49,893 nt of DNA from a virus: the IMG/VR virus record IMGVR_UViG_3300028844_003870; one strand, written 5' to 3'. The translations under genes were made by a program, and so were the position numbers. This document shows, in pieces, positions 46,756 to 49,294 of this stretch (its first letter is position 1; each line of letters starts with the position of its first letter). Below the pieces are notes generated by a model, which was not told the DNA's origin, did no database searches, and saw only the letters and a list, made by a program, of their open reading frames with translations.

Positions 46756-47259
46756 TATCCAAATAATACCCTAAACACCTAGGGCATGTTGTGATGGGTG
46801 TCACGATTATTTAACAGGGTTACTTTTTATCATTCAACCTCCTAAGTAAAGAGTCAATAAATAGCGCTAAATTGTGGTGATTATTGCCATTTTCCTGCAC
46901 CAATCCACCAAAGTGCAATTGTCTGTCGAAATGGATTTGCTTGCAGGCTATTGATATTAATAAGGAATCGGGATTCTCTGGACTTAGTACAGTAAGTACA
47001 CGCCCTAACGCACTAACTATAAATTTATCTCTAAATAATATTTAATAAAAAATATTATATATAATATATTGTATAATTGTACTTATAAGCTTTTTTAGAG
47101 TCTAAGTGTTTGATATTAAAAGGAAATCAAAAGTACAGTTCGACTGTTTTTTATGTGCACTTGTACAATTTGTTCGTTTTTTAACCAGTAAAGCTTTGTT
47201 TTATTATCTTTACTTGCCTAGGGAGGGTGTTAATATTTAGTTTTTAATCGAGGTGAAAA
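46756..47259. other. 500-bp noncoding control region
   Basis: No ORF of 60 aa or more. TGTACTTA motifs at 46993-47000 (rc), 47078-47085, 47131-47137 (rc); AGTAAAGAGT at 46847-46856; very AT-rich core 47030-47075. Confidence 0.6.
46790..46805. promoter_or_regulatory. TGTGA-N6-TCACG dyad
   Basis: TGTGATGGGTGTCACG, upstream of the minus-strand 46731 start. Confidence 0.45.
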
Positions 47260-47661
47260 ATGAAATTCGAACACGTAACAAGTAAAATTATCCAGTGGCA
47301 TCATGACCGCAACTTGATTGATGGTGCAACAGACTGGACGCAAACAGAAAAGATGATGGAAGAACTGTTAGAGTTGATTGCATCACAGCTACCAGGTGAA
47401 TATGAGCCGTCGGATATAGCCTTTGCAGGGAATCAGATTATTAATGACCTTTTGCTTAAGGGTAGAATTAAGTCTGTCGCAGAAGAAGATAAGGCAAAAG
47501 CAAAGTTAGATGCTTTAGGTGATATGACCGTTGTTGCTATCAACATCGCAGAACGTAATAGCTCATCATTAGATACATGCATGAACCTTGCGTGGAATGA
47601 AATTAAAGATCGTAAAGGTCAAATGATTAATGGTACTTTTATTAAGGAGTCGGATTTATGA
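47260..47661 (+). CDS. MazG-like nucleotide pyrophosphohydrolase
   Basis: IIQWHHDRNLIDGATDWTQTEKMMEELLEL typical of the MazG/NTP-PPase fold. Confidence 0.7.
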   Translation: MKFEHVTSKIIQWHHDRNLIDGATDWTQTEKMMEELLELIASQLPGEYEPSDIAFAGNQIINDLLLKGRIKSVAEEDKAKAKLDALGDMTVVAINIAERNSSSLDTCMNLAWNEIKDRKGQMINGTFIKESDL

Positions 47662-48113
47662 ACATATTAAAATTGCTAGAGTTTGAAGAGGGTTATCGCG
47701 AAAAGCCATACATTGATAGCCTTGGTTACCCAACGGTTGCCATAGGTAAGCGTATAGGCCCAAAAGGCGCATCAATTGACCTGTACCAGTTTAAGGTGTC
47801 AAAGCTAATGGCTTCTTTGTGGCTAGAGGAAGAAGTTGCTCATACCGTTCGCGTTGCTAATGCGCAGGAATGGTTTAAGCCTTTAAGCGATGATCGAAAG
47901 GTAATTATCCTATCGATGATTTATCAAATGGGCTTGGTTGGCGTGCTTAAGTTTAAAAATATGATTAAAGCTTTAGAGTCTCGCAACTGGAAAGAAGCAG
48001 AGAAGCAAGCTTTAGATAGTTTGTGGGCGCGACAAACCCCTGAGCGAGCATTGCGCCATGCTAAGGCGTTAGGTGGTGATAAACTGGCGGATGTGTACAA
48101 AGGTTTAATTTGA
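47658..48113 (+). CDS. endolysin, T4-type lysozyme (GH24)
   Basis: LLEFEEGYREKPYIDSLGYPTVAIG carries the E-D-T catalytic triad spacing. Confidence 0.85.
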   Translation: MNILKLLEFEEGYREKPYIDSLGYPTVAIGKRIGPKGASIDLYQFKVSKLMASLWLEEEVAHTVRVANAQEWFKPLSDDRKVIILSMIYQMGLVGVLKFKNMIKALESRNWKEAEKQALDSLWARQTPERALRHAKALGGDKLADVYKGLI

Positions 48114-48130
48114 TGCAATTAGCATAACTA

Positions 48131-48166
48131 AGCATTGACCATCATATCAATGCTTGGTATTGTTTA
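48131..48166 (+). terminator. terminator-like hairpin after endolysin gene
   Basis: AGCATTGA-N8-TCAATGCT followed by a T-rich tail. Confidence 0.5.
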
Positions 48167-48194
48167 TCTCGTTGAGCGGAAACGCTTACCCGAC

Positions 48195-48213
48195 ACTCAG
48201 TAAAGAGTAAATC
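48195..48213 (+). repeat. 19-bp direct repeat, copy 1
   Basis: ACTCAGTAAAGAGTAAATC, identical to 48314-48332. Confidence 0.9.
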
Positions 48214-48310
48214 AATGCGCGGATCTGGAAATTGGTACGCATTGGCAACAAGCGGACGGATCAGATGGTGCGCAAAGTCGCATTACTGTTTCGATTCCAG
48301 CCCGCGCATT
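48214..48310 (+). ncRNA. structured element with tRNA T-loop-like motif (alternatively a 35-aa ORF 48215-48322)
   Basis: 9-bp closing stem AATGCGCGG/CCGCGCATT; GTTTCGATTCC at 48288-48298; GC-richer than its surroundings; I could not fold a cloverleaf. Confidence 0.35.
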
Positions 48311-48313
48311 TAT

Positions 48314-48332
48314 ACTCAGTAAAGAGTAAATC
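48314..48332 (+). repeat. 19-bp direct repeat, copy 2
   Basis: Identical 19-mer, followed by hairpin TTCAATG-N18-CATTGAA (48333-48364). Confidence 0.9.
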
Positions 48333-48566
48333 TTCAATGTAAGCGAACCGAATAGCGCATTGAATACCTTTCGGAGTTACTGGTGTGTTAACGCTGACTA
48401 ATAGGAAAGACTATTATTGATAGAAAGCTTCTTACTAAAAATAAGGTAGATGATTTATCTACCGCGCAGGTTTAAGCGCATAAGTGATGAAACAAGGCTC
48501 TAGTTAGATGCGATACTCAAGCACCCTATATCACAGGCAAGTGGCTTGCATGACGCGAGCAACCAA

Positions 48567-48648
48567 GGTGAATTAGCTCAGTTGGTAGAGCGCATAGGCG
48601 ACTAGTTAAGCCATGAGGCCATAGGTTCAAGTCCTATATTCACCGCCA
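48567..48648 (+). tRNA. tRNA-like gene with over-long anticodon arm (identity unassigned)
   Basis: Acceptor GGTGAAT/ATTCACC, D arm GCTC-AGTTGGTA-GAGC, T arm ATAGG-TTCAAGT-CCTAT, encoded GCCA tail. The anticodon arm is CAT(A)GGC-GACTAGTTAA-GCCATG (23 nt instead of 17). Confidence 0.6.
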
Positions 48649-48650
48649 AT

Positions 48651-48724
48651 GCGTTATTAGCTCATCGGTAGAGCAGCCGACTTTTAATCGGAAGTGGCAG
48701 GTTCAATTCCTGCATAGCGCTCCA
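48651..48724 (+). tRNA. tRNA-Lys: tRNA-Lys (anticodon UUU)
   Basis: Hand-folded cloverleaf: GCGTTAT-TA-GCTC-ATCGGTA-GAGC-A-GCCGA-CTTTTAA-TCGGA-AGTG-GCAGG-TTCAATT-CCTGC-ATAGCGC-T-CCA. Confidence 0.85.
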
Positions 48725-48820: not shown

Positions 48821-49294
48821 ATGCAAAAGTTTAAAGTGTTTATCTTATCAGCTATCATCGGAACGTCTTTGTCAGGGTGCCAGTTGCTAACGTCATCTGT
48901 TGATTTAGCTGCTGATACGATCCTAGCGTCTGTAGAAGTCGACGCAATGCAAACAGATTTGGGTAATTACGTTGATAATCAAACTGCACTGGACGAAGTT
49001 GATGCACTGCAAGCGGATATCTTAGAAACTTTAACTACTGGCAATGGCGCTGAATATTTATTTAGCTATCAAGGCCGCGCATTGATCGCTTATGCAACTT
49101 TACGAGATGAAGCTTTAAGTCGTTGGGACGAGTTATCAGCAGAGCAACAAACCAACCTGGTTGATTTAGATAATCAGTTAATTGCACTGAATGATGAATT
49201 TAACTCAATGAAAGACTCAACATCGTTCACGACTGAGATTTTAGATATTCTTTATCGCGCAGCTATCCTTATGAGTTATTACAAAGCAATCTAA
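48821..49294 (+). CDS. lipoprotein (157 aa)
   Basis: Signal peptide with lipobox LSGC (MQKFKVFILSAIIGTSLSGCQ); helical mature part. Confidence 0.7.
   Translation: MQKFKVFILSAIIGTSLSGCQLLTSSVDLAADTILASVEVDAMQTDLGNYVDNQTALDEVDALQADILETLTTGNGAEYLFSYQGRALIAYATLRDEALSRWDELSAEQQTNLVDLDNQLIALNDEFNSMKDSTSFTTEILDILYRAAILMSYYKAI

Follow-up and report, generated by a model that had tools for sequence, protein, structure and literature searches.

Transfer RNA (tRNA)-like RNAs are already known in phages as a kind, although the specific family described here is new, and phage tRNA genes themselves are now viewed as counter-measures against host defences that cut tRNAs. Phage T4 carries two small and stable RNAs within its tRNA cluster, species 1 and species 2 (rnaC and rnaD), which are co-transcribed and are thought to be matured by the tRNA-processing machinery; to our knowledge, both are specific to T4. 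In YrlA and in transfer-messenger RNA (tmRNA), the order of modules places a long helix at the anticodon-stem position. A further phage locus is considered here, in the virus sequence IMGVR_UViG_3300028844_003870 of IMG/VR (one strand of 49,893 nucleotides (nt), 5' to 3', called the window over its full length), where two exact copies of a 19-bp direct repeat frame a structured segment of 97 nt. The segment is likely to hold, at 48216-48309 on the plus strand, a gene for a tRNA-shaped, non-decoding small RNA of a rare phage family, with the repeats marking the entry of the cassette into an island of tRNA genes.

Two described systems bear on the fold and on the repeats, respectively. Allo-tRNAs, some of which are phage-encoded, branch as 8/4 or 9/3 (acceptor/T); their D stem and variable arm are long, and their anticodons are standard ones that decode (PMC5389517). 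The PeSLs of T4-type phages consist of a strong sigma-70 promoter and a terminator stem-loop and occur in many copies per genome; they lie in hyperplastic regions at the boundaries of indels and replacements and have been proposed as mediators of modular shuffling (PMC2839356, PMC4122927).

A tRNA-Like RNA Family in Phages

When 48195-48400 was compared with GenBank phages by sensitive blastn, 48227-48298 matched Klebsiella phage Magnus, a member of the Ackermannviridae, and Pantoea phage AAM22, in both of which the copy lies where only tiny hypothetical open reading frames (ORFs) are annotated, the strand of these ORFs being opposite between the two records. A copy is also present in Klebsiella phage Madison, which at the locus is near-identical to Magnus, and one further copy was found in the IMG/VR contig L029 by a pattern scan for the shared core. 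A covariance model, R1, was built only from L029, AAM22, Magnus and Madison, with the window left out, and it matches the window segment over model positions 1-94 of 94 (Table 1); ordinary tRNAs from the window and other loci score 17-28 bits on R1, and the other members score 101-119 bits but are its training sequences. Five conserved blocks follow one another in order and are all present in the window copy, namely GGAAATTGGTA, AAGCGGACG, TCAGATG, GTCGCATT and TTCGATTCC, with the variants GGAAGTGGTA, GTCGCGTT and TTCGAATCC in L029. Over these blocks, 44 nt in total, the window and the enterobacterial phage copies are identical, and the remainder has diverged. The AAM22 copy, from a 50-kb Pantoea phage, and the Magnus-type copies, from 158-kb Klebsiella phages, are about 86% identical.

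The layout of the family comprises a 7-bp acceptor stem, a D loop GGAAAUUGGUA(GA), a short stem with a loop of 21-23 nt, a variable stretch of 10-12 nt containing GUCGCAUU, and then a canonical T arm. The D loop of the family, like the corresponding block of the window, resembles that of bacterial tRNA-Leu. The core of the large loop, AAGCGGACG(AC/GA)UCAGAUG, is almost invariant, and the nearly invariant core can also be given as AAGCGGACGNNUCAGAUG. In the window, A48214 and A48215 add two pairs with T48309 and T48310 to the acceptor stem, which yields the 9-bp closing stem AATGCGCGG/CCGCGCATT (48214-48222/48302-48310) that the initial annotation had noticed and that an inverted-repeat scan returned as well; the T-loop-like string GTTTCGATTCC, also noticed there, is present at 48288-48298. 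The 97-nt segment folds at -40.3 kcal/mol, which is more stable than its shuffled versions (z = -3.6).

Table 1. Positions of the features at the locus (window coordinates).
Feature	Position	Strand	Remarks
tRNA-like small RNA gene	48216..48309	+	Full-length match to model R1, 50.1 bits, E 1.2e-11
Acceptor stem, 5' strand TGCGCGG	48216..48222	+	Pairs with CCGCGCA at 48302-48308; 7 bp, perfect
D-loop-like block GGAAATTGGTA	48227..48237	+	Identical in AAM22 and Magnus; D-stem pairing ambiguous
Core of the oversized 'anticodon' loop, AAGCGGACGGATCAGATGG (AAGCGGACGACTCAGATGA in other members)	48250..48268	+	From the alignment
T arm ACTGT-TTCGATT-CCAGC	48285..48301	+	T loop intact; 3/5 stem pairs
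19-bp direct repeat, copy 1	48195..48213	+	Left edge is the exact end of homology with L012 and L013
19-bp direct repeat, copy 2	48314..48332	+	ACTC able to pair with GAGT of copy 1, lengthening the closing stem of the RNA
Degenerate third copy CCTAAGTAAAGAGTCAATA	46841..46859	+	Left breakpoint of the non-coding block of about 400 nt that the window shares with L012 and L013
Short hairpin after copy 2 (TCAATG...CATTGA)	48333..48364	+	Forms in the fold
Terminator-like hairpin after the lysozyme gene	48127..48163	+	Overlaps promoter-like TTGACC-17-TATTGT preceded by TG; consensus match only
Atypical tRNA	48567..48645	+	Downstream of the element
tRNA-Lys(UUU)	48651..48724	+	Downstream of the element

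The pairing was assessed in an alignment of five sequences, in which 90.4% of the cells are paired compared with 66.4% in shuffles. It was found that 13 of the 19 pairs change on both sides, a number reached in none of 500 shuffles, and that sliding the partners as a control left pairing of only 32-43%. Across the family, all 7 pairs of the acceptor stem have changed on both sides. RNAalifold independently recovers the acceptor stem, the T arm and a 4-bp anticodon-like stem with the variants GGGA/UCCC, GCCA/UGGC and GGCA/UGCC, leaving the D region ambiguous. In the T stem of the window, U53/C61 replaces a G-C pair; of the three pairs that are left there, two have both bases changed relative to the other members. 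A candidate pseudoknot of GCG(G)AC with GUCGC is invariant in all members and hence yields no covariation signal. The comparison establishes, at the level of predicted structure, that the window segment belongs to this family and has a cloverleaf-like fold. The earlier proposal of a tRNA-derived small RNA was essentially right, since the segment is a tRNA-like RNA with phage homologs and compensatory stem changes; close relatives do lack the element, which is part of what had been named as refuting the idea, but the compensatory changes are seen in distant homologs, so that this check has a split outcome.

The members differ in what surrounds the shared fold. The acceptor stems of AAM22 and Magnus are extended by a stalk of about 22-23 bp, the sequence of which differs between them, and L029 has no stalk but a following hairpin and T-run (read by eye). 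In the window, the acceptor stem is continued only by the 2 extra pairs and by GAGTA/TACTC contributed by the two repeat copies. An intrinsic terminator lies just downstream of the AAM22 element on the same strand, and the elements of Magnus and the window lie upstream of five and two tRNA genes, respectively, again on the same strand. The copies of the window, AAM22 and Magnus do not encode a CCA end, and in L029 the acceptor stem is followed by A-CCC.

Searches for further members and for known families returned little. In Rfam, nothing reached the gathering threshold over the element and the island, nothing matched 48185-48570 at E<=10, and no RF00005 or YrlA match to the element was found over the Magnus and AAM22 loci at E<=1. 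With default settings, ARAGORN did not detect the element in the window or in the homologs; with relaxed settings, it drew a cloverleaf with an 'intron' of 13-18 nt in the anticodon loop in all four lineages, with a different anticodon for each member. Among the matches to five core patterns in IMG/VR, L029 alone was real, and those in L023-L027 were chance matches or ordinary tRNAs. The JGI metagenomes gave only the window's own contig, the conserved core gave two matches, both by chance, against one genome per GTDB species, and no family copies were found in E. coli genomes and plasmids or in a related Vibrio phage genome. To look for mis-called copies, the spurious ORF of Magnus was also used as a protein query, and it returned only itself. 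The family appears to be rare, as no further copies emerged from these patterns and searches across the databases used. It is absent from Rfam 15, is unannotated or mis-annotated as tiny hypothetical proteins in GenBank, and was not found described in the literature searched.

Meanwhile, three marine Vibrio phages of about 60 kb carry genes annotated as 'tRNA-OTHER' or 'tRNA-Und', or left unannotated (1153-1227 in L033 and in L034, 1148-1223 in L035), with an acceptor stem (GGTTACT/AGTAACC) and T arm almost as in the L029 copy and with different inner parts. The 3' trailer ACCCAAATT of L035 is also common to L029. This suggests a wider set of irregular tRNA-shaped genes with one backbone in marine Vibrio phages.

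The searches also bear on a possible origin by site-specific integration, by which the segment would be left over as an attP-type copy of part of a host tRNA gene. Phage att sites often hold the 3' halves of tRNA genes, and an identical core of 19 bp is of typical size. However, the conserved core is unmatched in the GTDB species set beyond the two chance matches, the element is a complete cloverleaf-like unit and not a 3' half, no integrase lies nearby, and the same RNA occurs in Magnus, an Ackermannviridae member; such an origin is extremely improbable.

The same stretch can also be read as protein. The 35-amino-acid ORF at 48215-48322 and the start-stop pair ATGTAA at 48337-48342 exist as first described, and the ORF could be a small peptide gene with the plausibly spaced AAGAG of the repeat as its ribosome-binding site (RBS). 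However, this frame contains two stops in AAM22 and in Magnus and one in L029, and every frame is shifted within the conserved blocks by 1-nt indels, located in the D loop of L029 and, in the window, downstream of the loop core. Copy 2 of the repeat offers ATG-TAA only, copy 3 has no ATG, and the annotated ORFs that overlap the element are on one strand in Magnus and on the other in AAM22. As far as the aligned letters tell, they demonstrate that the 97-nt segment carries no conserved reading frame, and the peptide gene can be set aside with near-certainty.

The 19-bp Direct Repeats

The exact 19-mer ACTCAGTAAAGAGTAAATC occurs twice, with a spacing of 119 bp, as the initial annotation had stated and as a motif search with shuffles confirmed: there are no further matches at <=3 mismatches in the window, and two matches were seen in 0 of 100 shuffles. 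The related string reported elsewhere in the window proved to be a degenerate third copy, 79% identical, although it begins at 46841 (AGTAAAGAGTCAAT at 46845-46858) and not at 46847 as had been given. Across both repeats, the arrangement in the window is 100% identical in three independent assemblies (ENA ERZ27295583, Logan SRR5204266 and JGI 3300004097), so an assembly artefact is ruled out, and the window-identical contigs (L006-L011) show no variation.

The motif contains AGTAAAG/AGTAAAT half-repeats and an ACTC...GAGT self-complement. In the fold, copy 2 contributes (T)ACTC, which pairs with the GAGT(A) from copy 1 and gives the tRNA-like RNA a longer closing stem; this pairing seems a side effect, one that weakly recalls the stalks seen in AAM22 and Magnus. 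On the plus strand, our scan found neither a sigma-70-type promoter nor a terminator within the 19-mers, and the third copy alone overlaps a TTGACT -35-like hexamer on the minus strand. No flanking direct repeats were found around other members of the RNA family, and the likeness of the 19-mer to the 5' leaders of the AAM22 and Magnus copies is not significant (p = 0.22 and 0.76). The exact 19-mer has two matches in IMG/VR, both in coding sequence (..DLLFTE) and judged to be chance. A resemblance of the 19-mer to the T3 promoter, judged by eye, was also considered and dropped; no RNA polymerase was seen among the larger proteins scanned, a scan that was not exhaustive, and the phage looks like a myovirus of about 50 kb. 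The 19-mer is specific to this locus and no part of the RNA family.

After copy 2, the short hairpin described by the initial annotation does form in the fold. The idea that it repeats the frame of the larger segment holds for AATG...GCGCATT only, the two segments being otherwise no more alike than chance (p = 0.13-0.19), and the hairpin was rejected as a decayed copy of the RNA on the same comparison. The sequence after copy 2 has TCAAT and AATAGCGC in common with that after the third copy. The flanks of the exact copies have diverged, with a TTC insertion and different trailers, despite the 19/19 identity of the motif, an observation compatible with recent recombination inside the motif or, alternatively, with selection acting on it.

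A rival reading takes the 19-mer to be a functional signal (a leader, a site of processing or one of protein binding) that underwent tandem duplication along with its cargo, after which most of the second cargo was lost by deletion. The 19/19 identity beside diverged flanks suggests selection or gene conversion on the motif, the motif has half-repeats as well as a self-complement that helps to close the RNA stem, and both cargos start with AATG and end with GCGCATT. Against this, the interiors after copies 1 and 2 are not alike above shuffles, the motif holds no plus-strand promoter or terminator of the kind scanned for, the other family members have neither the motif nor flanking repeats, and only three copies exist in about 50 kb. 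A signal duplicated with its cargo, which had been among the first suggestions, is not borne out on these grounds and is quite unlikely.

The tRNA Island and Its Breakpoints

The phage genome of about 50 kb encodes a terminase, a portal, a Mu-F-like head protein, a Baseplate_J-domain protein and a DUF3383 protein, and its closest isolates are Vibrio phages of 47-48 kb, with a portal identity of 67%. The island consists of 707 nt of non-coding DNA between a lysozyme gene (47658-48113) and a gene for a lipoprotein-like protein of 157 amino acids (48821-49294). In distant relatives, the latter gene comes directly after the endolysin gene, so the island is an insertion inside the lysis cassette. 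A related Vibrio phage has tRNA-Gly and tRNA-Arg just upstream of an endolysin-like (DD-peptidase) gene, a comparable spot by the lysis genes.

The three closest relatives, L012, L013 and L017, in which the lysozyme or the 157-amino-acid protein is 95-96% identical, have different islands and lack the element. All three conserve the terminator/promoter-like sequence. In L012 and L013, the terminator hairpin is followed by ...CTTACCCGACAC as in the window and then by 28 unrelated bases, so that homology stops exactly where copy 1 begins, and there is not even one 19-mer at the site. L013 retains tRNA-Lys only and L012 has no tRNA, and in L017 the terminator is followed by GCTTGCCCGACGCGAGCAACCAA, tRNA-Trp(CCA) and tRNA-Lys. 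The element is shown by this comparison to be an accessory cassette in a hypervariable tRNA island inside the lysis cassette. Just before copy 1, a small hairpin, AGCG-GAAA-CGCT (48172-48186), keeps its stem in L012 and L013 with a varying loop (GAAA, AAAG or AAAA). Within this phage group, contigs of the window type with the RNA cassette (L006 and L010) and of the tRNA-Trp type (L017) co-occur in the ENA sample ERZ27295583, and the island polymorphism is therefore segregating in one population.

Similarly, the third copy lies at a junction. The non-coding block of about 400 nt that follows (46850-47259) is mostly identical in L012 and L013, its left flank is unrelated, and the break falls within copy 3. 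Because two of the three copies sit exactly at mosaic breakpoints, the 19-mer most likely marks a recombination or insertion boundary, as far as can be judged from the aligned genomes. The block, which has no Rfam match, may be a late-promoter or regulatory region, and an AT-rich palindromic stretch lies inside it (about 47040-47075). The insertion point of a MazG-like gene (47260-47661) is precisely the RBS/ATG from which the relatives start their lysozyme gene.

Direct repeats around inverted ends recall a miniature mobile element, with the 9-bp ends as terminal inverted repeats and the 19-mer as a target-site duplication, or a retro-insertion of the tRNA-like RNA in the manner of a short interspersed nuclear element (SINE). 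The order of direct repeat, inverted ends and direct repeat fits such an element, as does the lack of the insert in close relatives, and tRNA-derived retroposons with long flanking target duplications are known in eukaryotes. However, the supposed inverted repeats are the acceptor stem of the RNA and covary in the homologs, the segment is single-copy in the genome, the homologs have no flanking direct repeats, and the relatives without even one 19-mer offer no empty target. A scan of the proteins, which was not exhaustive, showed neither a transposase nor a reverse transcriptase. A mobile element of this type is very unlikely.

Further along the island, a conserved leader, GACGCGAGCAACCAA, stands before different tRNAs (48545-48566 in the window, about 385-414 in L017 and about 1985-2012 in L013). 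It is followed by the atypical tRNA in the window, by tRNA-Trp in L017 and by tRNA-Lys in L013, so that the cargo is swapped exactly at the 5' end of the tRNA. The atypical tRNA scores 55 bits on the Rfam tRNA model, with a perfect acceptor stem, D arm and T arm and an encoded CCA; its anticodon arm is abnormal, with a stem of 3 bp (6 bp if a bulge is allowed) and a loop of 10-17 nt containing GACTAGTTAA, and ARAGORN does not detect it with default settings. It is the second tRNA-shaped gene with an oversized anticodon loop in the island, and its slot is occupied by tRNA-Trp(CCA) in L017 and empty in L013. Of the four island variants, three (those of the window, L013 and L017) retain tRNA-Lys(UUU), the only tRNA to persist in this way. 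Known anticodon nucleases act on tRNA-Lys(UUU), and its retention therefore fits a counter-defence role for the island.

Proposed Mechanism and Significance

In the mechanism proposed for the tRNA-shaped RNA, it would probably be transcribed together with the two downstream tRNAs, either from the promoter-like site at 48135-48163 or by read-through, and host tRNA-processing enzymes would cut it out alongside them. The RNA has no anticodon loop and therefore cannot decode, and the invariant loop would be its likely working part. We infer that its role is that of a non-decoding tRNA mimic, which may titrate or evade a tRNA-recognising factor or may base-pair with a target; the favored version is that it binds or diverts such a factor. 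Recombination or insertion would have brought the cassette of about 120 bp into the island, at a short motif that also occurs at another mosaic junction of the genome.

Several points weigh against a functional tRNA-shaped RNA delivered in this way. The family comprises only four independent lineages, and the alignment behind the pair counts was itself fitted to the model. Among the members, the window copy is the weakest, with three of five pairs left in the T stem (G53-C61 being lost), two of three in the D stem and two to three of four in the anticodon-like stem, which makes 4-5 unpaired cells in the alignment stems, and its minimum-energy fold prefers CUGGAA/UUCCAG over the cloverleaf. No CCA is encoded. 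The stalk of about 22 bp makes it uncertain, for AAM22 and Magnus, that a free tRNA-like end exists. The island promoter is a consensus match only; the loop core is unique in the window, where no complementary (antisense) site was found at <=3 mismatches, and no protein stands out as a partner. No empty-site allele with a single 19-mer (CCCGACACTCAGTAAAGAGTAAATCTTCAATG) was recovered, so the insertion history given above is a proposed one.

Because its stems are weakened and its minimum-energy fold is not the cloverleaf, the window copy could be decaying, that is, a non-functional pseudo-tRNA relic retained only through recent arrival in a junk-tolerant island. Its score of 50 bits, compared with 101-119 bits for the others (which are training sequences), and its lack in the three closest relatives would fit such a relic. 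However, the five blocks match the copies of the enterobacterial phages exactly although the remainder has diverged, and in the stem pairs that are left the differences affect both sides; this is a pattern of constraint and not of uniform decay. In addition, the acceptor stem is perfect over its 7 pairs and 2 more. Decay deserves more credit than the other alternatives but is still unlikely, and the tRNA-shaped, non-decoding small RNA remains the favored reading.

A bolder generalization can be put forward as a tentative and rather unlikely idea: a class of mobile non-decoding tRNA mimics with a conserved 19-nt loop, swapped among unrelated phages as cassettes of about 100-120 bp, would serve as decoy or inhibitor of a host tRNA-recognising factor, for example a defence anticodon nuclease, beside genuine spare tRNAs. 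More generally, a conserved non-decoding tRNA-shaped RNA in Pantoea and Klebsiella phages that is recognizable in a marine phage points to a second use of the tRNA fold, as an RNA mimic. AAM22 and Magnus are cultivable phages, which makes the idea directly testable. The locus also displays the rebuilding of a phage tRNA island at base resolution, with cargo swapped exactly at conserved leaders and short repeats.

Comparison with Known Systems

Compared with canonical tRNA (RF00005), the family has the same four-arm layout, with a 7-bp acceptor stem, a D loop with GG and a T arm with a UUCGAUU loop, and it is likewise placed in a phage tRNA gene cluster. Unlike canonical tRNA, it has a conserved loop of 21-23 nt in place of the 7-nt anticodon loop, so that no anticodon is assignable; the element has no RF00005 match at E<=10, is missed by ARAGORN with default settings, and lacks CCA in three of the four lineages. 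The T4 species 1 and 2 RNAs, likened here by description only, are small RNAs among phage tRNA genes, as the window element is, and are not known to have a motif in common with the family.

A tRNA-like module, with a T arm and a mimic of the D loop, on a long helix is also found in the Y-RNA-like YrlA of bacteria and phages and in the tRNA-like domain of tmRNA, and the stalk of about 22 bp in AAM22 and Magnus recalls this arrangement. The long helix of the family, however, extends the acceptor stem and does not stand at the anticodon-stem position. No YrlA or tmRNA match was found in Rfam over the element at E<=10 in the window or at E<=1 in Magnus and AAM22. tmRNA was likewise rejected for the window, where neither ARAGORN nor Rfam finds one and where there is no tag frame and no G3-U70; at position 3-70 the window has C-G, and other members have A-U, G-C or U-A. 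As a separate observation, about 100 nt upstream of its tRNA-like RNA, Magnus (L019) has a tmRNA-like frame at 1352-1387, ANDDVVLMAA and two stops, within a segment (1235-1436) that gives weak Rfam matches to tmRNA_permuted (26.5 bits) and alpha_tmRNA (24.7 bits) and no tmRNA call by ARAGORN; this segment may be an unannotated phage tmRNA-like RNA.

Allo-tRNAs resemble the family in being non-canonical tRNA-shaped genes, some of them in phage tRNA clusters. Membership was rejected, as the family branches 7/5 and possesses neither a hairpin in the variable arm nor an anticodon loop. With respect to the repeats, the 19-mer resembles a PeSL in that it sits at two breakpoints between close relatives (L012 and L013). 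It differs from a PeSL in that it has no plus-strand promoter or terminator and occurs in three copies only, so that the 19-mer would be analogous to PeSLs in role and not in composition.

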